Below the pieces are notes generated by a model. That model was not told where the DNA came from. It was given only the letters and a program-made list of their open reading frames with translations, and ran no database searches. This document shows positions 222-40,434 of a stretch of 40,782 nt of DNA, piece by piece. Each line of letters begins with the position of its first letter. The stretch's first letter is position 1. Location of the stretch: the IMG/VR virus record IMGVR_UViG_3300017700_000448, positions 1-40,782 of that record; one strand, 5' to 3'. The position numbers were made by a program, and so were the translations under genes. Source of the DNA: a virus. Its lineage: Duplodnaviria > Caudoviricetes.

Positions 222-595
222 ACTGCCCGATCAACGGCATCTGCACACGGGGGTGTTACCACCGCCACAACAGCTGCGAACTGGAACTACTCCGTCAACC
301 CCTCAACACCCCGAGGCCCTACACCATGAATGCCCAACAGACCATCGAAGACCGCGAAGACAGCCACGGGGACTATCGTGTCCAGGCCGGTTTCTCGCAG
401 ACCCTCAAGGACGAGGCGCGCGGCCATCCCGGCTGGGAAAAGCTGTCGCCCGAACAGCGCGAGAGCGTGGACATGATCTTCGTGAAGGTTAGCCGCATTC
501 TGACCGGGTCCCCGAACACCGCCGACCACTGGACGGACATCGCGGGTTATGCTACTCTTATCTCCAACCTCCTGACCAAAGGACACCACCTGTAA
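218..595 (+). CDS. DUF6378-like all-alpha protein with a short Cys-rich N-terminus
   Basis: Motifs RxxxHGDY, KVSRILTG and DHWTDIAGYATL match the DUF6378 pattern. ATGA overlap at 218 and TAATG overlap with purZ. Alternative start at 326. Confidence 0.7.
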   Translation: MNCPINGICTRGCYHRHNSCELELLRQPLNTPRPYTMNAQQTIEDREDSHGDYRVQAGFSQTLKDEARGHPGWEKLSPEQRESVDMIFVKVSRILTGSPNTADHWTDIAGYATLISNLLTKGHHL

Positions 596-1698
596 TGGCC
601 CGCACAGTTTACGCCGCCCTCGACGACTGGTTCAACAAGCCGGGGGCCTATGTCCTCGTCGACGGCCAGTTTGGCTCCACCGGCAAGGGCCTGTTGGCCG
701 GGGTCCTCGCCCATCACGGCGCGGGGGCCATCACCCATTGCACGACCAACGCCGGTCCGAACAGCGGCCACACGGCCTACTATTCCGGGCCGCACACGGT
801 TGACGGGGGCGAGGAGAAGATCGTCACCCAACAGGTGCCGGTCGCCAGCGCCTTCCTCTCGCGCATGGGGTACAAGTGCGACACCCTGATCAACGCCGGG
901 GCCATGATCGAGGAGGAAATCCTCCGCCGGGAAGTGGCCGAATGGCTGGACCACAAGCGGGTCTTCATCCACCCGAACGCGGCGATGATCAGCCCCGAAG
1001 ACGTCGAGCGCGACAAGCTGGTCGTGTCGGCCATCGCCGGGACCGGCAAGGGCACGGGTCCCGCGCTGGCGCAGAAGGTCCTCCGCGACCCGAACGCCAC
1101 GGCGGAAAGCATCTACCAGCCGATGCTGCCGGGGGTCGACGCCGGGACCACCTTCGCCCGCACATGGGACCGGTTCTGGGACTGGACCCGCGATGTGGTG
1201 TTCGTGGAGACGGCCCAGGGCTATTCGCTCGGCCTGAACAGCAGCCGGTTCTACCCGAACGTCACCAGTCGGGAATGCTCGGTCCAGCAAGCGCTGGCCG
1301 ACGCCCGCATCCCGGCGCAGATGCTCCGCAAGGTCGTCGCCACCTTCCGCACGTTCCCCATCCGGGTGGGTAACACCGAGAACAGCAGCGGCGGCTGGTA
1401 TCCCGACCAGCGCGAAACGACCTTCGAGGCCATCGGGCAGGAGCCGGAAATCACCACGGTGACGAAGCGGGTCCGGCGCATCGCGGAATGGTCGCGCATC
1501 CAGTTTCGGGAGAGCGTGGCCTGTAACATGCCGGATGTGGTGTTCATCAACTTCATGAACTACCTTCCGGAGGACCAGTGGGACAGTTTCCTGTCCCTGA
1601 TGGTTCTGGACTACGTCGCCGTCATGGGCCACAAGCCCGAGGCGGTCCTCATCGGCACTGGCCCGCGTTCGCGCGACGTCACGGTCTGGAACGGATAA
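595..1698 (+). CDS. purZ: PurZ, N6-succino-2-amino-2'-deoxyadenylate synthase (PurA paralogue)
   Basis: PurA fold motifs with PurZ signatures: DGQFGSTGKG (Ser for the PurA catalytic Asp of GDEGKG), NSGHT, AQGYSL, YPNVTSR, PIRVG, ITTVTKRVRR, and FINFMNY in place of the GTP-specifying TKLD. Confidence 0.93.
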   Translation: MARTVYAALDDWFNKPGAYVLVDGQFGSTGKGLLAGVLAHHGAGAITHCTTNAGPNSGHTAYYSGPHTVDGGEEKIVTQQVPVASAFLSRMGYKCDTLINAGAMIEEEILRREVAEWLDHKRVFIHPNAAMISPEDVERDKLVVSAIAGTGKGTGPALAQKVLRDPNATAESIYQPMLPGVDAGTTFARTWDRFWDWTRDVVFVETAQGYSLGLNSSRFYPNVTSRECSVQQALADARIPAQMLRKVVATFRTFPIRVGNTENSSGGWYPDQRETTFEAIGQEPEITTVTKRVRRIAEWSRIQFRESVACNMPDVVFINFMNYLPEDQWDSFLSLMVLDYVAVMGHKPEAVLIGTGPRSRDVTVWNG

Positions 1699-1699
1699 C

Positions 1700-1963
1700 A
1701 TGGCGGAGCGCGGCACTCTCAATCTCAACCTGCACGACGCCGACGAGACGGAAGTGGAGGTCGAATACTCCATCACGTACGACGGCAACGGATGGGACGA
1801 ACCCCGTACCTGTGAGGTCGAGATTGAGAGCGTCACGTGGGAGGGCGAAGAGGTCGCGCTCCTCGACGCCGAGTACAACGCGTTCTGCGACCGCATCGCG
1901 GAAAGCCACGAGCCTGACGACGGCAGCGATCAGGCGTACGACGATTACAGGGACCGGGACTGA
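1700..1963 (+). CDS. small, highly acidic hypothetical protein
   Basis: Fills the gap between purZ and the MazG-like gene with TGATG coupling. About 28 of 87 residues are D/E. Confidence 0.75.
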   Translation: MAERGTLNLNLHDADETEVEVEYSITYDGNGWDEPRTCEVEIESVTWEGEEVALLDAEYNAFCDRIAESHEPDDGSDQAYDDYRDRD

Positions 1964-2280
1964 TGCCAGAGGGCTTGACAGACGAGGGCGGCAAAGTCCT
2001 GGAGGTCTTCCTCCCGAAGGAACTGGTCGATATTGGCGTGGCCCCGGACCTGCAGCGGTTCTTCGACGCCATGATCTACAAGCTGCGCCGCAACGCCCAC
2101 AAGGGGCATTGGGACCACCTTTCCCTCGACACCGCGTTCGCGGACCTTGGGGGCGAGGTCGAGGAACTGACCGGGGCCATCGCCAGCGGTTCGACCGCTG
2201 AAATCCTGATGGAGGCAGCCGACGTCGCGAATGAAGCCATGATCTGCGCCAATATCGCGCTCGCCGGGAAGGGTCTATGA
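1963..2280 (+). CDS. MazG-like all-alpha NTP pyrophosphohydrolase (probable MazZ-equivalent dGTP/dATP pyrophosphatase)
   Basis: EVEEL...EAADVAN metal-binding helices (ExxE...ExxD), 105 aa, located in the purZ cluster. Confidence 0.75.
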   Translation: MPEGLTDEGGKVLEVFLPKELVDIGVAPDLQRFFDAMIYKLRRNAHKGHWDHLSLDTAFADLGGEVEELTGAIASGSTAEILMEAADVANEAMICANIALAGKGL

Positions 2281-2642
2281 ACCCCCGCGTGGCCGAGTTT
2301 CTGCAGGGGGCCGTCAGGGACGGTGCTTCCGAGGCGTACGCGGTCCTAGTGACGGTCGACGGCGAGGCGTCCGTGCACGTAGGGAAGGCCCGTCCGGACG
2401 GCACCATTAACTACGCGGGGGCCTCGACGCGGGGTCTGAAACTCGGAGCGTTGATCGACGAACTGCTCGGCCCGCTGACTTACGTGTCGGCCATCGCCCA
2501 CATGGAAGGTTATGACGACCTGCCCCCGGACGTCAAGGCCCTCGTACAAGAACACGGGCCGCGCGCCCACCGTCTCTACGATGAGGGCTACGAAGCCTTC
2601 GATATCCTCCAAATCCTGAAAGCGGAGAAGAAGAATGTTTAG
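2277..2642 (+). CDS. hypothetical protein within the Z cluster
   Basis: ATGA overlap upstream, 8-nt overlap with datZ, phage-like codon usage. Confidence 0.7.
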   Translation: MNPRVAEFLQGAVRDGASEAYAVLVTVDGEASVHVGKARPDGTINYAGASTRGLKLGALIDELLGPLTYVSAIAHMEGYDDLPPDVKALVQEHGPRAHRLYDEGYEAFDILQILKAEKKNV

Positions 2643-3324
2643 TCACTATGCCAGGGTTCTGGCCAGCGTCCCCCGGTGGTCCATCGTCCCGGTCACCCGT
2701 CGCCAATACGTCGCGGAGCATTCCTACTTCGTGTCGCTGTATGTGGCCGAACTCCTCGGCCTCTCGATCTTCGACCACTGGACGGCGGAACGCAAGCTGG
2801 CCGCGATCAAGTACGCCCTCATCCACGATGCCGGGGAGGCGCGAATGGGGGACACCCCCGGACCGGTCAAGCGTCTGACCGTGAACCGCCCCGCGTTCGA
2901 CGAGGTCGAAGCCGCCGTGACGCGGGGCATGGGTTACACGGACCGGAACGGGTTCGGCTGGCATGTCGACAGCGAAATCAAGCTGGTGGTCAAGGCGGCG
3001 GACCTGATCGACGAATTCTTCTACCTGAACATGGAAGCGTCCATGGGGTCGAAGATCGTGACCAACCTCGTCCAGCAGGTGGAATTCCGGCTCCTGTCGG
3101 CGCTGGAGAAACTGCCGTGGGACAGCGACCCCAACTGCTATTTCAGCGCGCGCACCCTGTTCGCGGAAATCTCCGAAGAGGCAGCGGCCCTTGACGCGGG
3201 CATCGAGACGCTGTCAAATAACGATGACGTCCTGCCCGCCGGGGGCAATCCCGCCACCGGATGCACCGAACAAGCGCGGTGCGGCAGGGACGAGTGTTCA
3301 ATCTGCGAGGGCATCCCGTTTTGA
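2635..3324 (+). CDS. datZ: HD-domain (YfbR-like) phosphohydrolase, DatZ-like dATPase
   Basis: PRWS...VAEHSY...ALIHDAGEARMGDTPGPVK...VKAAD is a YfbR/DatZ HD signature, and the gene lies in the purZ operon. Confidence 0.82.
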   Translation: MFSHYARVLASVPRWSIVPVTRRQYVAEHSYFVSLYVAELLGLSIFDHWTAERKLAAIKYALIHDAGEARMGDTPGPVKRLTVNRPAFDEVEAAVTRGMGYTDRNGFGWHVDSEIKLVVKAADLIDEFFYLNMEASMGSKIVTNLVQQVEFRLLSALEKLPWDSDPNCYFSARTLFAEISEEAAALDAGIETLSNNDDVLPAGGNPATGCTEQARCGRDECSICEGIPF

Positions 3325-6524: not shown

Positions 6525-6943
6525 TACGAGCCTCCCGTGGGTCCTTTCAGGACCAGTTCCAGCTTGTCAGCGACAAGCCACCAGATGAAGGCGGTCATTG
6601 CGGTCCCCGCCGTTACGAACCCGCCACCCCATGCAATCCAGGTCTTGTACTTCGACAGCAGGGTGTTCTGGCTGTCCTCGACCCGGCGCATCCGGCCCAG
6701 CAGACCGATGCCCTTGAACCCGCCTTCCCCGTCTTCTTCCTCGGAGCCGACGAGAAGCAGGATGGCGTCCATCTTGCCTTCGACCCGTTGGAGGGTCATG
6801 GCGTTCAGGCCTTGGTTCTTGAGTACGCCTTGAACGTCTTTCTCAAGCGAATCCATACGCGCCACCACACTCGGAGAAATCGGCCTCGCCCGACTGCGGC
6901 GAGGTTTCTTATGCTCGGAGGCTACCATATCGGGGCTTCCCAT
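6524..6943 (-). CDS. coiled-coil protein with a C-terminal transmembrane helix, candidate holin
   Basis: Start at ATG 6943 follows the tail fibre stop. Hydrophobic WIAWGGGFVTAGTAMTAFIWWLV. Coupled to the endolysin. Confidence 0.55.
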   Translation of the reverse strand: MGSPDMVASEHKKPRRSRARPISPSVVARMDSLEKDVQGVLKNQGLNAMTLQRVEGKMDAILLLVGSEEEDGEGGFKGIGLLGRMRRVEDSQNTLLSKYKTWIAWGGGFVTAGTAMTAFIWWLVADKLELVLKGPTGGS

Positions 6944-6944
6944 G

Positions 6945-21384: not shown

Positions 21385-23430
21385 TTATTCGGTGGAACCG
21401 TCCGAAGCGCCCGGTTGTCCCCCGGCGGCGGGGTCGGCAGGTCGAGGGGTGGAGAGGATGTCGTTCGTAGTCTTGGCCCCCTCCATGTTGACCCTCGTTG
21501 CCTCGGCGTCGATGCCCGCGAGCGTTTTGTCCGCTTGCACCGCCGTCCGAATTTCTCCTTGCTCTGCCCCGGCGATGGCGGCGTGTGCCTTTGCCCGGTT
21601 GAGTTCGGCCTGGGAAACCATCTCCTCGACGGTGGCTCGGAGTTCCACCATCATGATTTCCTTCTGCTCCTCCGCTTGCGCCTTCGCGGCCTCGGCTTGG
21701 GCCTCCTTGTGCTTCTGGATTTTCTTGAGCAACTCCCGCTTGCGGGGGAGGTTGGTCATTTCCAGGAAGATTTCGAAGGGGACCTCGTCGGCGTAGCGAG
21801 GATTGCTCGCCACCATGGACCGGAGTTCCGTGAGTTGCTCCGCCATGATCGTTGCCGTTTCCGGCGTCGTGTCGATCATGATGTCGATGTCCATTTCGGC
21901 GATCTGGTTGTCGAAACCGAATTCGTCTCCTTCCCCGAGTTGGCGCATGACCGGCTGGCCGGTAGCCTCATCAAGCACCGGCTGACCCGCTTCGTCAAGC
22001 TGTGGCGCTTCCGTGATCGGAGCGTTCAGGCGGACGTAACGCGGGTCCTCCATGTCGTCGGTGAGGCGAATCCACATCGGCTCGGTCCAGTCTTGCTTGG
22101 CCCGATACCAGATTTGGTTGTAGATGCGCAGCTTGAAGTCCTCGAACTGGTCCAGAACGATCGAGAGTTCGATCAGACCGGCTTGCTGGCGGGCCAACAT
22201 CGCGCGCCCCGAAGTGTCGGCCCCCTGACGGCCCAGCATGGCGGGGTTCGGGGAGAACCGCTCCATTTCGTTCTTGGCCTCGTTCAGGAGCATCATGTTC
22301 CCGGCGGACTTGTCCGCGCCGGGGACTTTGCCCCACCCGTACGGGAGGACGCCGTCCGGTCGGGCCGCTTCCTTCCGGGCCTCTTCCGCGTCGACCTCGA
22401 TGGCCGAGGGGTCGGTGGCCTGGATTTGGCTCGACGAGATTTCCCACAGCGCCTTCGACCGGCGCTTGTTGATTTCGTCCTGCAGGTCCCGCAGATCGGA
22501 GCCGTAGCCGATACGGTTGTTGTCCTTGTCGACGTAGCAGGACTGCGCCACGATGGGGTTGCAGGGCTTGCCCTTGTCGTCGAGGTAGGGGCTGACCTCT
22601 TCGGTGATGATGCCGCCTTCCCAATAGACGCAGCGGTACCATTCCCGGCCGCACTTCTCGTAGATTTCGACGACCTGAACGCGCTTGTTCTCGGTGTCAA
22701 TCCAGCCTTGGTCGATGGGCCGGTCGTCGAACGTGTCGTCCGAGCCGTTGCCAGTCCTTCCCGACACCCCGCCGCCGTCGAACGTGGCGTCGATGGCCTG
22801 TTGGTGGATGGCGTCCTCCGGGGCGAGGTCCTTGACTTCGTCGGCGTACATCCACTTGGCGATGCCCAGATAGCGCGCGTCCTTGAAGTCCGGGCGCTTC
22901 GAGCGGGGGTCGTAGAAGAACTCCTCCCACGGGATGGTGACGAGGTCGATGTCACCCTTCTCGGCCCCAAGCGCAACCAGCATGGCGCAGGTGCCGCCCA
23001 GCAGGTTGTCTTTCAGCAGGTACTTCTCTTCAAACTTGAAGCGGTTAACCTGCGTGACGTAGCGAAGGCAGTCGGTCGCGACGTCGGCGCTGTTGCTGTC
23101 GCCGGGGGTCCGGCCAAGGGCGCGAGGGTCGGCCCGGCTGTGATCGTTCACGCCGATGATGCCGTTGATCGCGACCTTGAACCGGTTGATGATGATGTCC
23201 GGTTGGCCCCGGTCCTTGAGGGCCTGACGTTCCGTCGGCGTCAGCTGGTCCGCATCGTAGTAGGAGTAGTTCAACTCCTGCTTCTTGCGGTTGTCCTGCG
23301 CGACGTTTTGGAAGTCCTTGAAGCGCTGCTTCCACTGTTCCAGCGTCTTCTTGTACTTCTTCGGCTCCGTCGGAGCTTCCGTCGCCACTTCGGCGGGCGG
23401 GGTGTCGAAGAGTTCTTCTGCGTCGGCCAT
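21385..23430 (-). CDS. portal protein, P22-like
   Basis: DRGQPDIIINR, FFYDPRS..DFKDARY, LRDLQDEINKRRSK, SGRAMLARQQAG, C-terminal coiled-coil barrel. Confidence 0.92.
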   Translation of the reverse strand: MADAEELFDTPPAEVATEAPTEPKKYKKTLEQWKQRFKDFQNVAQDNRKKQELNYSYYDADQLTPTERQALKDRGQPDIIINRFKVAINGIIGVNDHSRADPRALGRTPGDSNSADVATDCLRYVTQVNRFKFEEKYLLKDNLLGGTCAMLVALGAEKGDIDLVTIPWEEFFYDPRSKRPDFKDARYLGIAKWMYADEVKDLAPEDAIHQQAIDATFDGGGVSGRTGNGSDDTFDDRPIDQGWIDTENKRVQVVEIYEKCGREWYRCVYWEGGIITEEVSPYLDDKGKPCNPIVAQSCYVDKDNNRIGYGSDLRDLQDEINKRRSKALWEISSSQIQATDPSAIEVDAEEARKEAARPDGVLPYGWGKVPGADKSAGNMMLLNEAKNEMERFSPNPAMLGRQGADTSGRAMLARQQAGLIELSIVLDQFEDFKLRIYNQIWYRAKQDWTEPMWIRLTDDMEDPRYVRLNAPITEAPQLDEAGQPVLDEATGQPVMRQLGEGDEFGFDNQIAEMDIDIMIDTTPETATIMAEQLTELRSMVASNPRYADEVPFEIFLEMTNLPRKRELLKKIQKHKEAQAEAAKAQAEEQKEIMMVELRATVEEMVSQAELNRAKAHAAIAGAEQGEIRTAVQADKTLAGIDAEATRVNMEGAKTTNDILSTPRPADPAAGGQPGASDGSTE

Positions 23431-24896
23431 CAGAGTACCTTCCAGCCCTTCGAGGCTTGCTTGGATTTCTTGAAGATAGCGGCCCAGCGGTCATCTGCCG
23501 GGGGTTTCTTTTCTTCCGCAGCCTTACCGGCGCGGATTTTGGCGTTGATGGCCAGTTCGCCCATGCTGTCGGCGGCGTGGCTGTCTTCGTTGTGGAGCGG
23601 GCCGGTGAAGACCCCGAGCGCTTGGTTCCAGCGCTTCCGGTAGGATTTCAGGTGGTCCGTGCCAACCTTCGTGCGTTCGTCATGGAAGCGCAGGAACGGG
23701 ATGACCCGGCGGACGGCGTTGATGCGCTCCTCCGGGTCGCGGGGAACGCCCACCCGGATGGTGCCGAGGCCCAGCTTGTGGAGGGTCGACTTCCGGGTCT
23801 GACCGCCCGCGCCGATTTCCCGCACCATGACGTCGTGCGGAAGGTAGTGCATCCCGTACTTGTAGTGGATGGCCCGCTCGTTCTTGAAGGCCTCCTGAAC
23901 GATGATGTCCAGCCCGACGTCCGACGTTTCGTAGTAGTCGATGACGTTGATGTAGGTTCCGAACCGCTGGAAGAACCAGATCGTCGTGTAATCGTCGATA
24001 CCCAAGTCCCACGCGGTGTCGACCAGAATGTTGGGGTCGTGCGGGAAGTGACCGAACCGGCCCGCCGTTTGGGCGATCTGCAGTTCGGCGGCGTAATAGG
24101 CACCGGGCACCGCACTGTCGAAGTCGACCAGATATTCGGAACAGAACTTGGCCAGCCCTTCCAGATGGCTTCCCGCCTCTTCCACCAGTTCGGTGAGTTC
24201 CTGCAGCAGCTGTTCTGGCGTGAACACGCTGGTGACCATCGGGCAAAGGGGCGAGGAGAGGGCTTTGACTGCAGCCGCATAACTCGTGGCGTCGATGGTC
24301 GCGGCGGGGATGCGGGCCGTGTACCAGTTGGGGTCCTTCTCCCTCGCCTCGAAGGCGCGGGTGGCGTGGTTCCGGCCACGGGGCGTCCAGATGAAGATGG
24401 CGGTGCCACCGTTCTCCAGAAGAATGGGTCGGATATAGGCCCAAGCGTCGGGCTTCGCCAGCGACCACTCGGAGAACACCACCCCGATCGGCGGCGAACC
24501 GACGTAGTTGTCGTAGTTGTCGGAACCAAGAACCTGCCACGTGGAGCCGTTCTTCATTACGATCATCATTTCTTGGTCGCGGGTCGCGGCGCGCAGTTCC
24601 TTCGGGAACGCTTCATCGATGCGCCGCTTGCCGGTGCGGGGGTTCACCGCGTCCCAGATCGCCTTGCGGGCTTGGGATGCCTGGGGAAGCATGTGCCAGT
24701 AGGTGCCGACCTTCTTGTGCATCGCCGTCGCGGCCCAATGCAGCGAAATATCGTCCTTACCGAAACGTCGGTGCGCCACAACGTCGCAGCGCTTCCCGCC
24801 GCCCTCCAGATACGCCCAAATCCCCATTTGGTCGGGGCGGGGCCGCCAGTTGTTCCCCGGCAGCGTGATGTTGCGCTTCATCACAGCGGTGTTCAT
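23430..24896 (-). CDS. terL: terminase large subunit
   Basis: AHRRFGKD Walker A, VVFSE Walker B, WTPRG, AWDLG nuclease motif, SHAAD. Confidence 0.95.
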   Translation of the reverse strand: MNTAVMKRNITLPGNNWRPRPDQMGIWAYLEGGGKRCDVVAHRRFGKDDISLHWAATAMHKKVGTYWHMLPQASQARKAIWDAVNPRTGKRRIDEAFPKELRAATRDQEMMIVMKNGSTWQVLGSDNYDNYVGSPPIGVVFSEWSLAKPDAWAYIRPILLENGGTAIFIWTPRGRNHATRAFEAREKDPNWYTARIPAATIDATSYAAAVKALSSPLCPMVTSVFTPEQLLQELTELVEEAGSHLEGLAKFCSEYLVDFDSAVPGAYYAAELQIAQTAGRFGHFPHDPNILVDTAWDLGIDDYTTIWFFQRFGTYINVIDYYETSDVGLDIIVQEAFKNERAIHYKYGMHYLPHDVMVREIGAGGQTRKSTLHKLGLGTIRVGVPRDPEERINAVRRVIPFLRFHDERTKVGTDHLKSYRKRWNQALGVFTGPLHNEDSHAADSMGELAINAKIRAGKAAEEKKPPADDRWAAIFKKSKQASKGWKVL

Positions 24897-25312
24897 TGGC
24901 CTTCACCCTCGATTTCGGCGAAGGTGGTGATCGTCACGGTGATGTCGCCATTGGCCCCCATCGACCCGGTGGCCGTGTTCCAGCCCCGACGCTTCCCGAG
25001 GGTCTGCAGCACGAACCGTTCCGCGTTGGGGTCCGCCCCGGACTTGGCCCGGCGCATCTGGTTCGTCTCCGCGATGTCGACCACTTCCTCCCGCATGTCT
25101 GACAGGAGGTTGATCAGGTCGGGCGAACGGTCGATGCGTTCTTGAAGCTTCGTGCGCGAGAGGTCGAGGGAGCGGGCTGCTGCCGCCACGTTTCCATCGG
25201 CCTCAACCAAGGCATCCCAGATTTGTCCCGCCGTGATACGCGGCTGGTTGTACATGTCGTGGGCCGGAAGGACCTCACCGACCAGCGGGTATTGGGACGG
25301 GTCACCGCTCAT
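24893..25312 (-). CDS. terS: terminase small subunit
   Basis: N-terminal HTH (GNVAAAARSLDLSR), FVLQTLGKRRGW, overlaps the terL start. Confidence 0.75.
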   Translation of the reverse strand: MSGDPSQYPLVGEVLPAHDMYNQPRITAGQIWDALVEADGNVAAAARSLDLSRTKLQERIDRSPDLINLLSDMREEVVDIAETNQMRRAKSGADPNAERFVLQTLGKRRGWNTATGSMGANGDITVTITTFAEIEGEGQ

Positions 25313-25572
25313 TCGTATCGGGCCAGAATTCGGGCGCGTTCGGCGGCGGAAAGCGGGCGGGCGGGCCTTGCAGCGGCGGCGCGGGCGACGGCCTCTTGAC
25401 CGGCACGGGCGCGGTTTGCGCGGGCCTGTTCCTGGGCTTGCTGCTCCGTGTACGAGCGGGTTGCGGGACGCGCGGGCGCGGGTTGTGTCTGTCTCGTCGG
25501 CGCAGTCCTGTTCATGCGACCCCCGAAGGCGTCACCGACGAACCTGCCGAACCATCCGTTTTGCTGCGTCAT
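25309..25572 (-). CDS. small basic Arg/Ala/Gln-rich protein, first gene of the late operon, probably leaderless
   Basis: ATG 25572 lies 7 nt after a -10 box, and its stop overlaps the terS start. Confidence 0.55.
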   Translation of the reverse strand: MTQQNGWFGRFVGDAFGGRMNRTAPTRQTQPAPARPATRSYTEQQAQEQARANRARAGQEAVARAAAARPARPLSAAERARILARYE

Positions 25573-25579
25573 GGGGGTA

Positions 25580-25608
25580 AGGGTAGCAGGGTCCTTGGGT
25601 CCCGTCAA
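25580..25608 (-). promoter_or_regulatory. promoter for the packaging/structural operon
   Basis: Minus strand TTGACG-N17-TACCCT with TGC immediately before the -10. Confidence 0.65.
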
Positions 25609-26053
25609 GCGGAACGAGGGACCCGCGTCGAAGCATGGTGGGGGATACATAGCGGTTCTCGGGTCCCGTGATAGTGCGATGCACAACCCGTAGCCCGAGC
25701 CGATCTGGGAATGGGGGATATAGGTATGCCGGGTCCCCTCCCAATCCCCCTCCGGCAACCTCCCCCTACCCCTCTTCGCGCGCTCCGGGTCCCTCCCCCT
25801 ATGTTGCACCCATACCACATCTGCGTGTGCCTGTTGCCACGTGTCGCGGAGGCCGCAACCCGCGTCCAAGCGTGGTTAACAGCTGGTTAGCGGGCTTCTT
25901 GTGGCACGAGCCTTGCTACGCGTACGCGCCCACGCGCGCAGACAAAAAGGCAGCCGAACCCCGCGCCCCGTGGCACGCTTCTTGCCTCTGCAACCCCCGT
26001 GCCAGCCCGACCCCGGGGTGGCTTCCCAGACACGCCCCCGCCGTTCACACCTC

Positions 26054-26100
26054 GTTAACCACGTTTGGGGGTTGCGGGGTTCGCCGCCCCGTGGTAGGTT
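26054..26100 (+). promoter_or_regulatory. early promoter 1 with upstream GTTAACCACG box
   Basis: GTTAACCACGTTT-GGGGG-TTGCGG-N17(ending CCGTGG)-TAGGTT, followed by an AGGAG RBS. Confidence 0.7.
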
Positions 26101-26125
26101 GGGGGTAGGAACAAGGAGACACCCG

Positions 26126-26479
26126 ATGCCCGCCCCCACCGAAGCCCACCTCGCCGCCCTCGCCGCCGACGCGGACCACGCCTACCAACACGCGCTCGCC
26201 GCCGCCCTCGCGAACCCCGCGCTGGTGTGGGTCGTGGAAGAGCACGTCGTCGGCAACGAGACGGCCCCGTCCGCCCGGCTGTTCCGCACACGGGACGCCG
26301 CGCTTCGGGTGCTGGCCGAAGAGGCCGCGTGTGCCGCCAGCGAGGCAGCCGAGGGCGGCTACCCGAACGAGGACGCGTTCGCGGACGCCGAAGCCTTCGG
26401 CGCGTGGAACGGGGGCACCGAGTGGCGGGCCGACGACGGCTCGTGGCGGACGCTCGCGCCGCAAGCCCCGACCGAGTAG
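26126..26479 (+). CDS. early hypothetical protein (Ala-rich, acidic, no Ile/Lys/internal Met)
   Basis: Promoter and AAGGAG RBS precede ATG 26126. Confidence 0.7.
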   Translation: MPAPTEAHLAALAADADHAYQHALAAALANPALVWVVEEHVVGNETAPSARLFRTRDAALRVLAEEAACAASEAAEGGYPNEDAFADAEAFGAWNGGTEWRADDGSWRTLAPQAPTE

Positions 26480-26508
26480 CCCCGCAACCCGAACCCCGGA
26501 GAACCGCC

Positions 26509-26724
26509 GTGCCCCACCCCCTGCCGACCCCCAGCAAGGACGCCGCCTTCCTCGAAGCGCTGCTCGGAACCCTGCCGCCCGAACGCCAAGCCTACGTGCG
26601 CGAGGCCGCGCTGCGTCTGTTCCTGGAAGCCGCCGCCGACAGCCTTACGGACGAAGACCGGGCGGACCACGCGAACCTAGCCGACTGGCTCCCGGAACAC
26701 GCCGAGGCGCAGGTCTGGGCCTAG
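26509..26724 (+). CDS. early hypothetical protein
   Basis: GGAG RBS plus GTG start, helical composition. Confidence 0.55.
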   Translation: MPHPLPTPSKDAAFLEALLGTLPPERQAYVREAALRLFLEAAADSLTDEDRADHANLADWLPEHAEAQVWA

Positions 26725-26763
26725 GGGGCGAAGGGGGCTGCTGCGCCACCCGGAACCCGCGCC

Positions 26764-26917
26764 CCGTGCTGCCGTGCTGGTGTGTCTCGGTCGGCACAGG
26801 CCCCGCCCGCCGCCGCCGGGGGCCGAGGGGGTGGCACCGAACGCCGCCGCTCTTTTCTGACCCCTAGGGGCCGCCGTAGGGAGAGAGAGGTGTGTCGACC
26901 GAGACACGGCTGCACGG
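26764..26917. repeat. long imperfect inverted repeat/cruciform, candidate replication origin
   Basis: 26782-26798 pairs with 26891-26907 (1 mismatch) and extends through CACGGCWGCACGG. Internal palindrome CCCCTAGGGG at 26861. Confidence 0.6.
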
Positions 26918-27146
26918 CCCGCCGCGACGGCCTCCTCGCCCCCTCGCGCTGCACACACGGCTGCACGGCCCCCTGTGCTGCTGCCCCCTCGTGCCCGTGC
27001 GTTGCGCCTAGCGCCGAGGAAGCCCCCTTCCTGCGCGGTGCCCGCGACACGGCCCCCGAGGCCCCCGGCTGCACAGACCGGCGTGTCGGCGTGTGTGCGC
27101 TGCAGCCGTGCCCGAACAGGCCGAACCGGCGCGCGGCCCGGTGCCC

Positions 27147-27219
27147 GTTAACCACGCTTCTTAACCCCGCTTGCTAACCACCCTCGTTAAGTGCGCTTGG
27201 GCCGTCGTTAACCACGCTT
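27147..27219 (+). repeat. array of 13-bp GTTAACCACGCTT-like repeats
   Basis: Copies at 27147, 27160, 27173 and 27186 (tandem) and at 27207. Confidence 0.75.
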
Positions 27220-27253
27220 GGGGGTTGCGCCGCCCGAACAGCCGTGGTACGGT
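27207..27253 (+). promoter_or_regulatory. early promoter 2
   Basis: GTTAACCACGCTT-GGGGG-TTGCGC-N17(ending CCGTGG)-TACGGT. Confidence 0.7.
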
Positions 27254-27290
27254 TGCGTATCGGGGCAAGCCGCCCCACAGGAGACAGCCG

Positions 27291-27896
27291 ATGCCGACCC
27301 CGTACGAAACCGCCCCGACGCTGGCCCCCACGTTCCACACGGCCCGTTGGTACGCCGACGCCCAAGAGGCCCAACGGTTCTGCGGCTACTACGCCAGCAA
27401 GGACGACCACCCGACGCCCCGCACGTGGGAGCCGACGACGCACCCCCAGGGCGGCTTCGTGGTGTCGGTGCTAGACACCGAGGCCCGCCCGCTGTTCGTG
27501 CAGGAGACAGACGGCGACCGGCTCAACCAGCAGCTGGGCGCGGCGGTTCGCGAGGCCAGCGATGGCGACCGCTACTGCCCCCGGTTCCGCGCCGCCGTCG
27601 AGGCTGCCGAGTGGGCGTTGAGCCGCTGGGCCGACCGTCGCCGCCACGAACCGGCGTTCGCTGACGCCTTCCTCCGCCGCGCCCGGTTGGCCGTGCTGGA
27701 CGCCGCCGAGTTGGCCGCGCCGCCGCTTACCCCGGTCGAGGCCCAAGAGGTCTGGGACATCGCCCGCGACATCGCCGGGGACGAAAGCACCCGCGACCGG
27801 GCCGAACAGCTGGTCGAGGAGTGGGGTGTCCTTGGCGCTCGCGACGTCCTGCAGGACCAGCGCGATGCCGAGGCCGAAGAGGAGGGCGAGGCGTGA
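27291..27896 (+). CDS. early hypothetical protein
   Basis: AGGAG RBS before ATG 27291. Confidence 0.7.
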   Translation: MPTPYETAPTLAPTFHTARWYADAQEAQRFCGYYASKDDHPTPRTWEPTTHPQGGFVVSVLDTEARPLFVQETDGDRLNQQLGAAVREASDGDRYCPRFRAAVEAAEWALSRWADRRRHEPAFADAFLRRARLAVLDAAELAAPPLTPVEAQEVWDIARDIAGDESTRDRAEQLVEEWGVLGARDVLQDQRDAEAEEEGEA

Positions 27897-28102
27897 GCCG
27901 GACCCCCATCGACGCCCTGCGCCCTGTTCTGGGCCGAACGGTCGTGGACACCCACACCGGGGCCGTCGTGTTCCGCTACGGGCCGACCGAGCAGGACGCC
28001 CGCCTTGCCTACCGTCGAGCCGACCGGCTGGACGCAACCTACGGGGCGGTCCGTTACGTCGTCCGCCCGACCTACGGAGAACCCGCATGCGCGACGACCT
28101 GA
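27893..28102 (+). CDS. small early hypothetical protein
   Basis: GTGA overlap and GGAGG RBS. Confidence 0.55.
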   Translation: MSRTPIDALRPVLGRTVVDTHTGAVVFRYGPTEQDARLAYRRADRLDATYGAVRYVVRPTYGEPACATT

Positions 28103-28338
28103 CCCCGAACCGCCGAACCGTGGCGGCTGCAGCCCTGGGCCTCTCCCTCGACCCCTCTGCGCCCCCTTCCCAGAGCGCCGTGGCTTGGGCTGTCGCCCAC
28201 GCGGTCGCGGTCGAGTGCGGCAGGAAGCCCGAGGACGCCGAGGCCATCGCCGCCCGGTGGGCCACGGTAGCCGACATCGCCACAGGAAGCCCCGACGCGG
28301 GGCACGGAACCCGACCGCCTGTCGGTGGAGGGCTGTAA
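28087..28338 (+). CDS. small early hypothetical protein
   Basis: GGAG RBS before ATG 28087. Confidence 0.5.
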   Translation: MRDDLTPNRRTVAAAALGLSLDPSAPPSQSAVAWAVAHAVAVECGRKPEDAEAIAARWATVADIATGSPDAGHGTRPPVGGGL

Positions 28339-28363
28339 CACAGCGTGATCGGGCGCGCGTTCC

Positions 28364-28410
28364 GTTAACCACGTTTGGGGCTTGCGCCACCCGTGCAGCC
28401 GTGGTAGAGT
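28364..28410 (+). promoter_or_regulatory. early promoter 3
   Basis: GTTAACCACGTTT-GGGGC-TTGCGC-N17(ending CCGTGG)-TAGAGT. Confidence 0.72.
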
Positions 28411-28463
28411 GAAGATGTTGGGGCACCTGACGCCCCCGGACCTGAACAGAGAGAGACACGACC

Positions 28464-29417
28464 ATGACGACCACCATCAAGCTTTCCGCCGCCCAAACCA
28501 AGCTGGGCATCACCGCCGCCTCGTGGGACGAAGACCGCACCGAGGTCAAGGTCGGCGACCGGCTCTTCGAGCAGCTGACCGACGACAGCACCCCGGAGGA
28601 CTTCGTGTCCGCCGTGGCCGACGCCCTCAAGGCCGAGGCGTCCGGGTTCGAGGGCATCCTGCCCAACGAGGCCGTCGCCATCGAGCAGCTTCGCGGCGAG
28701 GACCACATGGCCAGCGACTTCGTCGCCCGCCTCGTCATCGACGGCAAGCCCGCCGGTGAGTTGGCGCGGGACCCGGTCCTTGCCGACATGCTGACGACGC
28801 TGGCCGAGGAGGAAGACACCCTGGCCCAAGTCGCGGGCATCCGCACGGACGGCGACGGCGAGGAGGAGGACGAACGGACCGGCTCCGTGGTCCCCGACGT
28901 CTTCAAGAAGCGCTACGCCGAAGCCGGTCACCCCGGCCATTGCGGCGACTGGCTGGCCCTCACGCTGAACAAGCTGTGCCAGACCATGGACGGCAAGAAG
29001 ACCATCACCGACCTCGACCGGCTGGAAGCCATCGCCGCCGCGAACGACGTCACCCCCGACCGGGTCGACCGGCTGGGGACCGCCACGAACGGCTGGCAGG
29101 GCCGTTACCGGATGACCGTCCGGAACATGCTGGCCAAGAAGGTGGCCGACAAGGGGTTCCTGTTCGTGCCGGAAGGCTGCGGCGTGGACGAGGACAAGGA
29201 GATGAGGGCCCCCAAGGACTGGTGCGCCAAGTACGCCACCAAGGTCAAGGCCAAGGCTCCCGCCAAGGCCGCTGTCGCCAAGGACGAGGGCGCGGGCAAG
29301 GCTTCGGCCAAGACCGCCGCCAAGGGCAAGGCCCCGGCCAAGCCCGCCGACGCCGACGCGAAGCCCGCCAAGGCCAAGCGCGGCACGAAGGCCGAGAAGG
29401 CGGGCGTCACCGCCTAA
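28464..29417 (+). CDS. early protein with an acidic N-terminus, a conserved RMTVRNML core and a histone H1-like Ala/Lys/Pro tail
   Basis: Strong codon bias. Paralogue of 35488..36123. Confidence 0.8.
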   Translation: MTTTIKLSAAQTKLGITAASWDEDRTEVKVGDRLFEQLTDDSTPEDFVSAVADALKAEASGFEGILPNEAVAIEQLRGEDHMASDFVARLVIDGKPAGELARDPVLADMLTTLAEEEDTLAQVAGIRTDGDGEEEDERTGSVVPDVFKKRYAEAGHPGHCGDWLALTLNKLCQTMDGKKTITDLDRLEAIAAANDVTPDRVDRLGTATNGWQGRYRMTVRNMLAKKVADKGFLFVPEGCGVDEDKEMRAPKDWCAKYATKVKAKAPAKAAVAKDEGAGKASAKTAAKGKAPAKPADADAKPAKAKRGTKAEKAGVTA

Positions 29418-29480
29418 ACCACCCCAGGACCCTAGGACCCGGCATCCCGCCGGGTCCGCCCCTTCTAAGGACGACCCGCT

Positions 29481-29783
29481 ATGCTTGAAGCACAAGACAT
29501 GAAGCTGACCCACGGCCAGCAGGTTCGCCAGACGGCGTTCTTCATGGCCCTCCAGTCGACCGGCTACAACGAAGGGCGGAGCCTCGACACCGTCAAGGAC
29601 ACCGCCGAGCAGCTGGAAAAGTGGCTGTGGGACGCCAACACGAAGCAGCAGGCCCACGAGTTGGCCAAGGCCATCAAGGCGCTGCAGAAGGTCAACACCG
29701 AGGCGCAGAGGGGGCCTATCCCCGTTGGGGCCTACGAGGCCGCAATCGCCGCCGTGGCGGTGGCCGCTTCGCCCTTCGTCTAG
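29481..29783 (+). CDS. hypothetical protein
   Basis: AAGGA RBS, coding-like composition. Confidence 0.65.
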   Translation: MLEAQDMKLTHGQQVRQTAFFMALQSTGYNEGRSLDTVKDTAEQLEKWLWDANTKQQAHELAKAIKALQKVNTEAQRGPIPVGAYEAAIAAVAVAASPFV

Positions 29784-29865
29784 TCGAACCGGGCCGGGGT
29801 TGCGCGAGCGCCCCGGCCATGGTCCCCTGCGACCGTGCCACACCCGCACAGGAAGAGGAAAGCCA

Positions 29866-30066
29866 ATGGTCGCCCCCACCCGCCTCACCCACGCCATCGT
29901 TACCGTTCACACCAACACGAACGGCGAGACGGTCTTCACCGCCCGGCCAGCCCAACCCGGCTACGAGCAGAACCCCGCCCACGAGGCGATGGCCCCCGAC
30001 GTCTTCGTCGCCTACATGGACGAGCGCGAGGGCGCGCACTTCGTGTTCGAACACCAGCCCCACTAG
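29866..30066 (+). CDS. hypothetical protein
   Basis: GAGGA RBS before ATG 29866. Confidence 0.55.
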   Translation: MVAPTRLTHAIVTVHTNTNGETVFTARPAQPGYEQNPAHEAMAPDVFVAYMDEREGAHFVFEHQPH

Positions 30067-30078
30067 GAACCCTGGACT

Positions 30079-30342
30079 ATGGCCAAGCCAACCGAACCCA
30101 CCCGCGTCAAGACGCTCCCCACCCTCGCCAAGGAACTCGGCATCGACCGGTCCACCATGGTTCGCCTCGAACAGCGGGGCGTGATCAGCAAGGCCCCGAT
30201 GGTCGGCGCTCCGGTGCAAGGCCGGGTCTATGACGAGAAGCTGGAGGCCAAGGTGCGAGGGGAAGTCGAGCGCTACCTCGCCCGCCAAGCCATCAAGCAC
30301 GAGGGTCGGCCCCCCGCCCCCAAGAACATCGTTGTCGTCTGA
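30079..30342 (+). CDS. MerR/excisionase-like HTH DNA-binding protein
   Basis: LPTLAKELGIDRSTMVRLEQRGVI...RVY. Confidence 0.7.
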   Translation: MAKPTEPTRVKTLPTLAKELGIDRSTMVRLEQRGVISKAPMVGAPVQGRVYDEKLEAKVRGEVERYLARQAIKHEGRPPAPKNIVVV

Positions 30343-30755
30343 TGGCCCGCGTCATTGACCCCATCGAGGAGGGCGTGGAAAGCGACGCCTTCTGGATGAT
30401 GGCCGAGGGCGGCATTCAGGCGCTGATGGCGATGGAAGCCCGCATCATCCCGGTCCCGGCGCACGTTGAGCGCAACCGGAAGGACCGCTACCGGCTGTCC
30501 TATATCTGCAACACCTGTGAGGCCGAACACCGGGTCGAGGGCGGCTTCGATCAGGTCTTCATGGGGACGCAAGCCCTCATGCTGCTGAACAGCGCCCGAG
30601 GCGTCCGGGTCGAGAAGCTGGCCTTCGCCATGGAGGAGGACGCCAACACCGCCGACACCCTGATGGAAACCCAGGGTGCGGACCCCCGGCTGAACAAGCA
30701 GCTGGACACCCTGTTGAAGAGAGGACCGAAGACCGATGGCCGAACGGACACCTGA
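30342..30755 (+). CDS. hypothetical protein with CxxC
   Basis: TGATG coupling, CNTC motif. Confidence 0.6.
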   Translation: MARVIDPIEEGVESDAFWMMAEGGIQALMAMEARIIPVPAHVERNRKDRYRLSYICNTCEAEHRVEGGFDQVFMGTQALMLLNSARGVRVEKLAFAMEEDANTADTLMETQGADPRLNKQLDTLLKRGPKTDGRTDT

Positions 30756-31014
30756 ACAGCTAGCGCTCTTCGCGCAACAGCGGGCCAATCAGGCCACCCA
30801 CACGCTTTACACCGACGCGGACGAGGACAAGCCCGCCGGGGCGTGTGACCGCAACGGGGAGTTGGTGCTTGGGGTCTGCCGGGTCTGCGGCACCTACGAG
30901 GCCGGGCTTGAGGACGCCCCCTGCCCCGGCGCTCGCCCGAACGTGGGCTGCTCTAACTCGGTGACCGGGGGCCAGGAGTTTCCCGACGAGCCGTTCATCC
31001 ACAGGGGGCCGTAG
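30736..31014 (+). CDS. small Cys-rich hypothetical protein
   Basis: GAGGA RBS, CDRNGELVLGVCRVCG. Confidence 0.55.
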   Translation: MAERTPEQLALFAQQRANQATHTLYTDADEDKPAGACDRNGELVLGVCRVCGTYEAGLEDAPCPGARPNVGCSNSVTGGQEFPDEPFIHRGP

Positions 31015-37897: not shown

Positions 37898-38020
37898 ACC
37901 GCTCCGAGGCCCTCCGGGGCCATGCTGCGGGCGGCGGGGCCTACCATACCCCGCCGCCTAGCCGCGCCGCTCCCGTACCCCTCCCCGGCCCGCCCTAGGG
38001 CCACCAGCACCGAGGCCCCC

Positions 38021-39856
38021 ATGCAGACCCTAGGCGACCGCGCCGAAATGGCCCTCCGGATTATCCGGGAAGCCCCCCTGATCGTACTGGACGCGGAGAC
38101 GTCGGGGGTCGATTGGCGCGTCAACCAGCCCGTCGGTTACGTTATCACCGAGAGCGCCGAGAACAACTTCTACATTCCGATACGCCACGGCGGCGGTTCG
38201 AACCTGATGGACCCGAACGTTGCGCCGATGCAGACGCCGACCGACAAGATCGTCATCCACGAATGGGAGCGCGAGGCCGCGAAAGCCTTCGAGGTCCGAC
38301 GACAGCGAAACTACAAGACGGTCGGCCACCACCTGAAATTCGACATGCACATGTCCGCGAACGCGGGCATCATGCTGGGCCGCAACTGCGGGTGCACCCA
38401 GAACAACGCCGCCATGCTGGACGAGTACCGGCGGTCCTTCTCTCTCGACAGCGTCGCCAAGTCCGAAGGCGTGACGGCCAAGCTGGGCGAGGAACTCTAC
38501 GCCCACATGGCGCGGCTGTTCGGGGGCGAGGCCAAGCGCTCCATCATGGAACACTACTGGCGGCTTCCGGGGGATGACGCCCTCGGCGTCGATTACGCCC
38601 TAGGCGATGGCGTGACCACCCTGGAAGTGTGGCACAGCCAGCTGAAAGCGATCGAGGAAGAGGACATGAGCCTCATCCACGGCATCGAGAGCGAGTTGAT
38701 CTGGACCCTGTTCCGAATGGAGCGCAGGGGCATCAAGGTCGACGAACGCTACATCGGGGAGTTGGAGGCCGGTATCGCCGAAGAGTTGGCGGCGGCACGG
38801 AGCGTCCTCCCCTCGGGCCTGAACGTCAAGTCGCCGGTCCAGATGAAGGCGCTGTTCGAAGAGGCGGGCATCACCAACTGGCCGACCACGGACGCGGGGA
38901 ACCCGTCCTTCACCGAAGCCTTCCTGAAACGGTCCGAGTTGGGCCGGGCCGTGGTGACCGTTCGCCAGCTGTCGACCCTCGGCTCTTCCTTCATCACGCC
39001 GTTGAAGGAGCGGTTCATCTTCGAGGGCCGGGTCCACGCGACCCTGAACCAGCTGAAAGCGGACGAAACCGGCACGGTCGCCGGGCGGTTGTCCTGTTCG
39101 GACCCCAACCTACAAGCCGTCCACAAGCGGAACAAGGTGCTGGGGCGGAAGTTCCGCAAGGTCTATGTGGCCGACGAGGACATGGACTTCTGCGAGGACG
39201 ACTACAGCCAATGCGAGCCGCGCCTGTTCGCCCACTATTCCCAGGACCCGAACCTGCTGGCCGGGTACAACCAGACCCCGTTCCGCGACGTCCACGACAT
39301 CGTCGCGCAGATGCTGGAGGTCGAGCGCGACCCCACGGCGAAGCGCATGAACATGGGCATCTTCACCGGGATGCAGACCCAATCCTTCGCCGGGCACATG
39401 GGTTGGCCCATCGACAAGGCGACCCAAGCGTTCAACGCGTGGTTTGAGGCGTTCCCCTCCATCAAGGGGTTCCAAGACCAAGCGAAGGCGGTCTTCCGGT
39501 CGCGGGGCTATGTGAAGACCATCCTCGGGCGGCGGTGCCGACTTGAGCAGCCCCGGTTCGCGTATCGCGGGACCTCCCGCATCATTCAGGGCAGCAATGC
39601 CGACATCTTGAAGGAACGGCTGCTGGCATGCGACAAGTACCTGGAAAGCCAAGGGGACCTCGTCCACCTGTTGATGACCGTCCACGATTCCATCGAGTAT
39701 CAGAAGCCGAAGGGGGCCGAGGGCGAGCGCCAACGCGCCGAAATGCGGGCGATCATGACGGACGTTCAGTCAGCCCCCTACAATCTGCGCGTTCCCTTCG
39801 TCATGGACAGCGGCACCGGAAAGAATTGGGCGGAGGCGACGTACGGCCCGGAATAA
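38021..39856 (+). CDS. family A DNA polymerase with 3'-5' exonuclease, probable DpoZ-type (dZTP-selective)
   Basis: Exonuclease motifs LDAETSG, HHLKFD, YALGD. Polymerase motifs TVAGRLSCSDPNLQ, DYSQCEPR (A), AKRMNMGIFTG (B), VHDS (C). Confidence 0.92.
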   Translation: MQTLGDRAEMALRIIREAPLIVLDAETSGVDWRVNQPVGYVITESAENNFYIPIRHGGGSNLMDPNVAPMQTPTDKIVIHEWEREAAKAFEVRRQRNYKTVGHHLKFDMHMSANAGIMLGRNCGCTQNNAAMLDEYRRSFSLDSVAKSEGVTAKLGEELYAHMARLFGGEAKRSIMEHYWRLPGDDALGVDYALGDGVTTLEVWHSQLKAIEEEDMSLIHGIESELIWTLFRMERRGIKVDERYIGELEAGIAEELAAARSVLPSGLNVKSPVQMKALFEEAGITNWPTTDAGNPSFTEAFLKRSELGRAVVTVRQLSTLGSSFITPLKERFIFEGRVHATLNQLKADETGTVAGRLSCSDPNLQAVHKRNKVLGRKFRKVYVADEDMDFCEDDYSQCEPRLFAHYSQDPNLLAGYNQTPFRDVHDIVAQMLEVERDPTAKRMNMGIFTGMQTQSFAGHMGWPIDKATQAFNAWFEAFPSIKGFQDQAKAVFRSRGYVKTILGRRCRLEQPRFAYRGTSRIIQGSNADILKERLLACDKYLESQGDLVHLLMTVHDSIEYQKPKGAEGERQRAEMRAIMTDVQSAPYNLRVPFVMDSGTGKNWAEATYGPE

Positions 39857-39928
39857 CAGTGGGCGACCTAGCGTGGGTGGTGTTAGCGGCTGTCGTGATC
39901 TTCGGCGGCAAAGGACTGGAGAAACTCT

Positions 39929-40147
39929 GTGGGCTTTAGCAACAAACCGGACGTCCAGCTTACGGGCGTCAACTTCGGGCCGCGCGGCAAGAGCCTGTAC
40001 TTTCAGGCCGACGCGTGGGATGAACCGGAATACGTCCCGATCAGCCAGTGCGAATTCGTCCCGGAGGAAATGGCCGAGGAACAGGGCCGGGGCGTAATCA
40101 CCATCCGGGGCTGGCTGGCCGACAAGAACGGCTGGAGGGAGATATAA
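39929..40147 (+). CDS. small conserved phage protein
   Basis: YVPISQ...ITIRGWLADKNG pattern, GGAG RBS plus GTG start. Confidence 0.6.
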   Translation: MGFSNKPDVQLTGVNFGPRGKSLYFQADAWDEPEYVPISQCEFVPEEMAEEQGRGVITIRGWLADKNGWREI

Positions 40148-40434
40148 GGAAGGCCCGACATGGCGAAGTCACGTGCCGTTGTCGGGCATACCGGTTCCCC
40201 CATCGGTTCAGCGGCGGGGCTTGCACAGGAGCGCAGCTTGTCGAGGAACAGTGGGAGAACAGCTACGGCGGCGGGGCATGCCGGGAATGCCTCAACCTAG
40301 ACGACGAGTACGGCGTTCCGTCCTGTCAGGTCGTCAATGGCGCAGAACGCGTCGAGCATTGCCCCGTGTGGGCGGAGTATGTTAGAGTTAACGAGATTAG
40401 ACTGGTGGGACCCCGATGGCAAGCGATGAACTAG
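40144..40434 (+). CDS. Cys-rich hypothetical protein (start uncertain)
   Basis: CRCRAYRFPHR...C..CREC..C..C. It fills the gap before the nuclease gene. Confidence 0.45.
   Translation: MRKARHGEVTCRCRAYRFPHRFSGGACTGAQLVEEQWENSYGGGACRECLNLDDEYGVPSCQVVNGAERVEHCPVWAEYVRVNEIRLVGPRWQAMN

Follow-up and report, generated by a model that had tools for sequence, protein, structure and literature searches.

In the 40,782-nt genome of a tailed virus recorded as IMGVR_UViG_3300017700_000448, all of which was analysed and is called the window here (an assembled circular phage genome, 123-nt overlap), the probable early end has been purged of the dinucleotide 5'-AT-3', in coding and non-coding DNA alike and at a cost in isoleucine, methionine and ATG starts. 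Judged by its genes, the 40.8-kb genome is podovirus-like and carries purZ, a MazG-like gene, datZ and a family A polymerase; its virion DNA would thus be expected to contain 2-aminoadenine (Z) in place of adenine, paired with T. The core of the AT desert (25821..27258, no strand; defined by AT positions, shuffles and word counts) contains 1 AT against 23 TA, the counts that an earlier note made from the letters alone had given, and this sole AT is the ATG start of gp1 at 26126. Mononucleotide shuffles of the core hold 26.8±4.5 AT (minimum 11 in 20,000), far above the observed count, so that a plain composition effect is ruled out. The AT steps in and around the desert lie at 25819, 26126, 27259, 27291, 27562 and 27759. 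The longest gap without AT, 1133 nt, is unmatched when the whole window is block-shuffled (maximum 480 over 300 rounds) and equals 35 mean AT spacings, the runner-up dinucleotide reaching only 12.8 of its own. An assembly artefact is ruled out too, since the region lies inside a single unitig (spanning 22246-28230 at depth 233 with 1 letter different), from a run that is possibly the source of the record and so not independent of it.

The two edges are unlike each other, as the earlier note had described. Immediately to the left, on the late side (25500-25820), AT is more frequent than expected (17 vs 10.6), while on the right a shoulder (27259..28340, no strand; AT positions and word counts) shows a gradual return of AT and of TGA/TCA, with AT recovered by about 28350-28550 in 250-nt bins.

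The banned set is wider than AT alone. With three-letter words judged by dinucleotide-preserving shuffles (2000 run), the desert is depleted of TGA/TCA (2 vs 17.8 expected), whose scarcity had been suspected by eye, of ACT/AGT (4 vs 22.4) and of AAA/TTT (6 vs 17.7), none of the 2000 shuffles being as low for any of the three; ACA/TGT, AGA/TCT, GAA/TTC and CGA/TCG stand above expectation. TGA/TCA is at or close to expectation in 19 control windows elsewhere in the genome; ACT/AGT is slightly low genome-wide (12 vs 30.4 at 29001-30938). Every flanking context of AT is affected, S-flanked steps (3 vs 18.9) as well as the rest (1 vs 16.8), so that the missing words are not the site of one known enzyme. 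By local nulls, 5'-A..T-3' pairs at offsets 1-4 number 1, 4, 12 and 15 against 26 each, with normal values from offset 5 onward, whereas T..A pairs at the same offsets (23, 17, 19, 23) are scarcely affected. The purged words join A with T, which would place Z on both strands, and the same-strand words ACA/TGT and AGA/TCT are enriched instead.

Selection on the DNA and distribution among relatives

Two non-coding stretches of the core are free of AT: the DNA upstream of the first putative promoter (25821-26100, 0 vs 7.1) and the intergenic stretch 26725-27258 (0 vs 9.0), whereas other intergenic DNA of the genome has 33 against 43.6. The first two early proteins, gp1 (26126..26479, + strand, 117 aa) and gp2 (26509..26724, +, 71 aa, with a GTG start and no AT), together have neither Ile nor internal Met in 186 codons (P = 5e-6 at the genome rate of 6.3%, a rate diluted by some off-frame open reading frames (ORFs) in the gene list), and they use 28 NAC codons but no NAT codon (P = 0.005), bearing out what had been read from their translations. 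The third, gp3 (27291..27896, +, 201 aa), has 2 Ile or Met in 200 residues where six homologues have 38 in 839 (Fisher P = 0.014), and this loss is therefore taken as the derived state. AT-bearing codons in the gp3 orthologue of the closest relative, G002, correspond to Leu, Val, Ala, Arg, CAC and GAC in gp3 of the window, where the aligned part retains four AT codons (residues 91, 157, 161 and 192); in gp6, which lies outside the desert, AT codons are swapped evenly with the G002 copy. Because the ban holds in non-coding stretches and the orthologues show a derived loss of Ile and Met, these results support selection on the DNA itself, as the earlier note had proposed.

The purge is lineage-specific, missing in the closest relative and repeated in a distant one. 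In G002 (TerL 72% and PurZ 73% identical), the same three promoters and gene order are present, and the homologous region has no AT desert (64 vs 68.8; low-complexity sequence interrupts the contig within the intergenic stretch). The G002 -10 element is TATGGT, a TGATC-type element precedes all three of its promoters (in the window only P3), and its counterparts of gp1 and gp2 are little similar. A different word ban was noticed in this sister lineage, ANT being found 9 times against 30-44 at 39430-40410 plus 55-1400. A sharp desert does occur at the equivalent place in the distant G027 (TerL 29%), with AT at 6 vs 25.2 and TGA/TCA at 4 vs 16.9. Inside it lies the sole Ile-free copy of gp6 among 25, which has Leu or Val at mostly-Ile columns and keeps an invariant Met. 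A third genome, G036, is intermediate (AT 11 vs 30.8). The idea that relatives might share the desert thus holds for a few of them and fails for G002 and most other purZ phages.

A fixed rule was applied to 18 purZ genomes, taking 800 nt from 35 nt after the terminase-type motif described below, with ZP6 and three motif-less genomes left out; AT depletion at P < 1e-3 occurred in 3 of the 18, the window included. TGA/TCA in these 800 nt, summed over the 17 other purZ genomes, numbered 150 against 257 expected; in four hand-picked purZ-less comparators the figures were 117 and 132.5, and the early end was A+T-richer in three of the four. We also observed that the A+T content of the first 800 nt is below that of the rest in all 18 purZ genomes, by 9.6 points on average. 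The words depleted upstream of terL in pooled purZ genomes are ATC, TCA and CCG, and minima fell within 1-5 kb of terL in 14 of 21 purZ genomes for AT and 17 of 21 for ATC, against 3 and 10 of 35 controls, which are mostly of another layout and whose purZ status is known for the compared stretch only. A general, purZ-wide depletion was rejected as an account: the top words are typical coding words, and orthologous genes near the end show little (AT 83 vs 88.9, TGA/TCA 28 vs 40.4). The mild general signal among purZ genomes is in part a non-coding effect, and the strong desert is sporadic.

No AT desert was seen in S-2L, Barton, PMBT28 or K300. Among 84 TerL loci with at least 2.5 kb upstream (some duplicates, many of different layout), 82 are without purZ in the stretch compared and none of these has a gap above 332 nt; nor was a comparable desert present among 120 motif loci, in those with 800 nt downstream and without a terL of this family. 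Two local AT excesses (observed/expected 2.2-2.7), the reverse of the desert, came to light in purZ phages, in G010 at 6500-9000 and in K300 (L317) at 38000-39000, the latter at the early end. The locus L323 (MW202510.1, 7372-12544), which has the same terminase family and layout and is without purZ, shows no AT desert and carries a pyrimidine hydroxymethylase, dCMP deaminase and glycosylase cluster.

The left edge is probably the physical early end of the genome. A putative terminase (pac) element, CGGGTCCC (25786..25793, +), lies 35 nt before the edge, its GGGTCC core starting at 25787, 34 nt ahead of the desert; further copies are at 25660 (+), 25730 (+) and 25618 (-). In phiKMV the core GGGTCC starts 33 nt ahead of the annotated right terminal repeat, and in T7 it starts 38 nt ahead of a copy of the genome's first bases; it is because the spacing in the window matches these repeats that we place a probable end at 25821. 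The motif occurs within 6 kb of terL, pointing away from it, in 18 of 22 purZ genomes and in 5 of 50 control loci, with a chance probability of about 0.13 for each. The early end of T7 enters the cell first, and by analogy of layout the desert end would do so too. Staged entry of T7 is cited in the Discussion of PMC12455610. In ZP6, whose ends were determined with PhageTerm (PMC8515928), the ends fall at the junction of terS and the early genes, and the last 530 nt are G+C-rich with AT at 7 vs 18.9. The placement of a genome end beside the desert, which the earlier note had assumed, is thus favoured by likeness to T7, phiKMV and ZP6, with points on the other side that are given below.

As a separate observation, CGGGTCCC lies between terS and the early genes in most purZ podoviruses, in many cases with a palindrome and a run of G after it (listed for the window, G013, G016-G021, G026, G027, G033, G035-G037, OH, phiVC8 and BUCT555). 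The core, at 42072 in phiKMV and 39740 in T7, is a possible shared terminase element and a possible predictor of genome ends.

A proposed host reader and rival explanations

A host DNA-level defence of some kind is the likely cause of the purge. More specifically, and with a probability of roughly 0.4, we suggest that the purge was selected by a defence with which the host cuts DNA, most likely a modification-dependent nuclease of type IV that senses Z. The desert end would lead into the cell, where a host enzyme would read two closely opposed Z:T pairs; the host RNA polymerase would transcribe from promoters P1-P3 while only the clean 1.5-2 kb was exposed; and the small acidic proteins gp1-gp3 would then block the enzyme, so that the ban could fade downstream. 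The reader would depend on Z and resemble Mrr or belong to some other type IV family, in what we guess to be an alphaproteobacterial host, and the role of gp1-gp3 as inhibitors is likewise a guess. A host-specific reader is favoured because the ban is sporadic, bound to the end, fading and made up of different words in different lineages, and a low-context modified-base enzyme because all AT contexts are hit and G+C-only palindromes are spared. There are precedents for the parts: McrBC, a type IV enzyme, reads a modified base with little context (Rm5C; PMC3874153), a type I site matters only within the first-injected region (PMC12455610), and dZ plasmid DNA transformed two Mrr+ Escherichia coli strains 46-63-fold worse (PMC12944874). 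A broader version, in which the desert is the footprint of a widespread host defence reading opposite-strand Z pairs (ZT, TSZ, ZST) and gp1-gp3 are the first anti-Z-restriction proteins, seems doubtful to us.

Several points weigh against a Z-sensing nuclease. The Mrr effect is termed small and unproven in PMC12944874, the literature searched, that paper included as far as its text was available, describes no dZ-dependent nuclease, and dZ DNA is not a substrate for either of the known readers of 6mApT, DpnI and HhiV4I (PMC11037411, PMC12944874). TA and TAA/TTA are kept, which is unexpected under a simple rule of two opposed Z. The proteins gp1-gp3 match no anti-defence family or fold, and acidity on its own says little, many genes of the genome being acidic. 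In 15 of the 18 motif-anchored purZ genomes AT depletion does not reach P < 1e-3, and the gp6 family shows no trend of AT with distance (rho 0.11, P = 0.66). Bearing on the genome end as well, the ZP6 motif has the opposite orientation and the window has several motif copies. By analogy with lambda cosQ, moreover, the orientation of the motif would have this end packaged first and hence ejected last.

Four causes had been put forward in the earlier note: a host sensor, nuclease or silencer; the physics of Z; a phage-made mark at AT; and a packaging signal. A host reader fits best of the four, its silencer version being unlikely since TA is kept, for which reason we rejected H-NS-type silencing. 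The other three are weakened by G002, which matches the window in promoters, terminase family and Z enzymes yet has no desert, and further by most purZ relatives, which lack one too. A glycosylase model of two opposed lesions was rejected as the leading account, since offsets above 4 nt are not depleted; the defence glycosylases of bioRxiv 10.1101/2025.10.29.685425 concern derivatives of G, C and T, and Z is unmentioned in the text available.

The chief rival to a Z-sensing nuclease, though in our judgement an unlikely one, is stacked avoidance, in the leading DNA, of ordinary Z-tolerant restriction-modification sites (types I, IIS, IIG, III and BREX) from several hosts. In DNA of 73% G+C, a few sites containing GATG/CATC, CATG, GATC, TGA/TCA or ACT/AGT would cover most AT steps; many type II enzymes still cut dZ DNA, at sites that include GGATG, CCATC, GCATC, GGATC, CATG, GGTGA, CTCAG, ACTGG and GGGAC (PMC12944874), and such words are low in the desert (CATC/GATG 3 vs 19, CATG 0 vs 7, GGAC/GTCC 13 vs 30). 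Word sets that differ between lineages, the avoidance of GATC or GANTC genome-wide by Z phages, and leading-region site avoidance as an already known principle (PMC12455610) all agree with it. It does not readily explain why A/T-flanked AT is gone too, or why G+C-only palindromes, unshielded by Z, remain (GGCC 27, GCGC 28, CGCG 32) along with the Z-sensitive TGCA (7) and ACGT (6). A physical cause, in which ZpT steps impede the host RNA polymerase, the separation of the strands or the entry of a genome drawn in by transcription, is improbable: the A+T-poor early 800 nt of all 18 purZ genomes, set against the A+T-richer ends of three of four purZ-less comparators, the summed TGA/TCA deficit in the 17 others and the three -10 elements without AT would suit it, but the promoters of G002 belong to this family, with TATGGT as a -10 element, and its AT is at a normal level, AT is freely used in the downstream early genes, the siphoviral Z phages S-2L, Barton and PMBT28 are without a desert, and plasmid leading regions are G+C-rich as well (PMC13478746).

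Rather less probable again is a second modification, placed by the phage on AT steps, from which the leading DNA has to be spared. Two ORFs of the Z cluster (1700-1963 and 2277-2642) are peculiar to the window genome and could be enlisted for it, but the window proteins have no methyltransferase or transferase match in PHROGs or Pfam, no + strand ORF is common to the window and G027 yet missing from G002, and the graded right edge suits exposure time better. We give slightly less credence to a purge of CRISPR protospacer adjacent motifs (PAMs) from first-injected DNA, which could draw on published phage PAM depletion (genome-wide and modest in PMC4246573) and on the spacer bias toward leading DNA mentioned in PMC12455610. 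Further PAMs would be needed for TGA/TCA and ACT/AGT. To our knowledge no common PAM is plain AT, and the PAM words AAG, TTC/GAA and CC/GG are not depleted in the desert. Mutation bias, or an imported module of odd composition with no selection on AT, is very improbable: early modules are swapped (gp1 and gp2 being little like those of G002) and the non-coding ends of phiKMV are mildly AT-poor too (0.8/0.7), but the adjoining non-coding late side is AT-rich, other intergenic DNA keeps most of its AT and conserved Ile columns have been replaced. Still harder to credit is RNA-level avoidance of AU, as by RNase E or a toxin endoribonuclease; AT being palindromic, the strands cannot be told apart, and early mRNAs are involved, but the ban is no weaker ahead of P1 or in the gap from gp2 to P2, and TCA and TGA are both lost. 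Least probable of all is a negative packaging or terminase signal: the edge does adjoin the putative pac motif, but AT is retained in relatives that share this motif and the terminase family, and the ban extends for 1.5-2 kb through genes.

The earlier note knew of no described system of this kind. Motif-free first-injected DNA is in fact in print (PMC12455610), and the AT specificity was not found in the literature searched; what is new here is the AT-specific form of leading-region target avoidance, the general principle being already known. Murciavirus against Mme2I (PMC12455610), T5 first-step-transfer DNA and the T7 left end with Ocr likewise show depletion at one end only, with the word common elsewhere in the genome and with host-type early promoters and small acidic early proteins adjoining. 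Each of them avoids a single site, 6-15 nt long, that belongs to a named enzyme, whereas the window avoids a dinucleotide and two three-letter words in all contexts, pays an amino-acid cost and has a predicted Z genome, with entry order and inhibitor putative. The winged-helix 6mApT type IV nucleases (DpnI, HhiV4I and fusions; PMC11037411) were the only ApT-step readers found in the literature search; they need N6-methyl-A and do not cut dZ DNA, and the window phage has no detected methyltransferase. For McrBC (Rm5C) and Mrr, the context read along with the modified base is one or two letters (PMC3874153), the Mrr site being undefined and no Z-specific enzyme established. Plasmid leading regions are G+C-rich, with motif depletion that is not consistent (PMC13478746). 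The purZ podoviruses OH (Ochrobactrum), ZP6 (Alteromonas), phiVC8 (Vibrio) and BUCT555 (Stenotrophomonas) share purZ, a mazZ-like gene, datZ, the family A polymerase, the divergent layout of terS and early genes and the G+C-rich early end; they differ in their AT observed/expected minima (0.57-0.78, against 0 in the window), and their PurZ is 35-46% identical. None of the literature searched, which was largely without subscription papers, describes a Z phage with a dinucleotide desert.

Z-DNA is regarded as a protection from restriction; a nuclease that depends on Z is being sought, with none established (PMC12944874). The desert predicts the words that a Z-dependent or Z-tolerant enzyme would read, which narrows an undirected search to a targeted screen, and it names three candidate inhibitors, gp1, gp2 and gp3; this would be of relevance to Z-substituted DNA in cloning and phage work. 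It is also a case in which a two-letter DNA word under selection overrides protein sequence. If opposite-strand Z pairs are indeed read, the desert would give the code that the defence recognises, and in at least two distant Z-phage lineages both the leading ends and the first proteins would have been rewritten under its pressure.

Early genes, Z cluster and candidate host

The early genes run rightward from three repeated putative promoters (repeat copies at 26053, 27206 and 28363), none of whose -10 elements contains AT. P1 (26053..26100, +; repeat D1, TTGCGG-17-TAGGTT with TG) contains no AT at all; P2 (27206..27253, +) reads TTGCGC-17-TACGGT; and P3 (28333..28410, +), with its TGATC-containing upstream element, lies outside the core desert. 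A sigma-70 scan returned no promoter, and the assignments are based on repeat D1 and the 17-nt spacing; a scan with the promoter pattern gave 79 loci, with double matches only in G002. The AT-free intergenic stretch (26725..27205) contains inverted repeats, TTAAC repeats and a terminator-like stem at 26830-26848, and is shared in part with G002. Before P2 (27147-27212), TTAAC-like words recur five times, about 13 nt apart, and form a possible operator array. Rfam had no match in the desert region, and blastn of 25000-29500 against named phages returned none.

The net charges of gp1, gp2 and gp3 are -13, -8 and -17, many other genes of the genome being acidic as well. For gp1, fold searches of PDB and BFVD gave nothing at E ≤ 0.001, with a weak model (pLDDT 67) and Atlas scores below 0.9. 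Two small early ORFs, gp4 (GTG start) and gp5, lie within the shoulder (27893..28338, +); a single weak PADLOC hit, to gp5, was not used. Beyond P3 lies gp6 (28464..29417, +), a conserved early protein of purZ phages with normal AT. Leftward from terS run the structural genes, terS (24893-25312) and terL (23430-24896) lying divergent from the early genes (23430..25312, -).

The Z cluster (595..3324, +) comprises purZ (595-1698), the MazG-like gene (1963-2280), datZ (2635-3324) and the two ORFs found only in the window genome. Aligned to the dGMP-selecting residues F12, S14 and T262 of VpPurZ and to its F295 and Y298, PurZ of the window has F26, S28, T287, F320 and Y323; 8 of the 10 listed residues are kept, with W252 and S273 differing (the list is taken as Z-specific in PurZ from bioRxiv 10.1101/2025.10.22.683976). 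DatZ is a predicted dATPase with an HD domain (phrog_7076, E = 7e-18). The MazG-like match (E = 0.007) is below the cut-off, with homologues in 15 of the 44 other genomes examined. The DNA polymerase (37922..39856, +) is of family A and DpoZ-like, its top named matches being in purZ phages and one of them annotated DpoZ. The cluster ORF at 1700-1963 encodes 87 aa of net charge -23, is DNA-mimic-like and has no homologue in the 44 other genomes.

CcrM methylates at GANTC, a word with observed/expected ratios of 0.08 in the window, 0.17 in Ochrobactrum phage OH and 0.07 in G002. Because it is depleted in all three, we guess at a CcrM-bearing alphaproteobacterium as the candidate host. Avoidance of host-methyltransferase words genome-wide was seen in Z phages more widely, with GATC at 0.03 in phiVC8, 0.01 in PMBT28 and 0.22 in ZP6; dZ DNA resists cutting by HinfI, DpnII and MboI (PMC12944874).

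The gp6 family occurs in 25 of 45 genomes examined, the 25 having purZ, is often the first early gene and has an invariant G-W-x-G-R-x-R-M-T core; a homologue search limited to short forms returned 1 protein. In the window, gp6 bears a histone-like Lys/Ala-rich tail. The protein has no family match and is a candidate Z-DNA-specific host-takeover factor.

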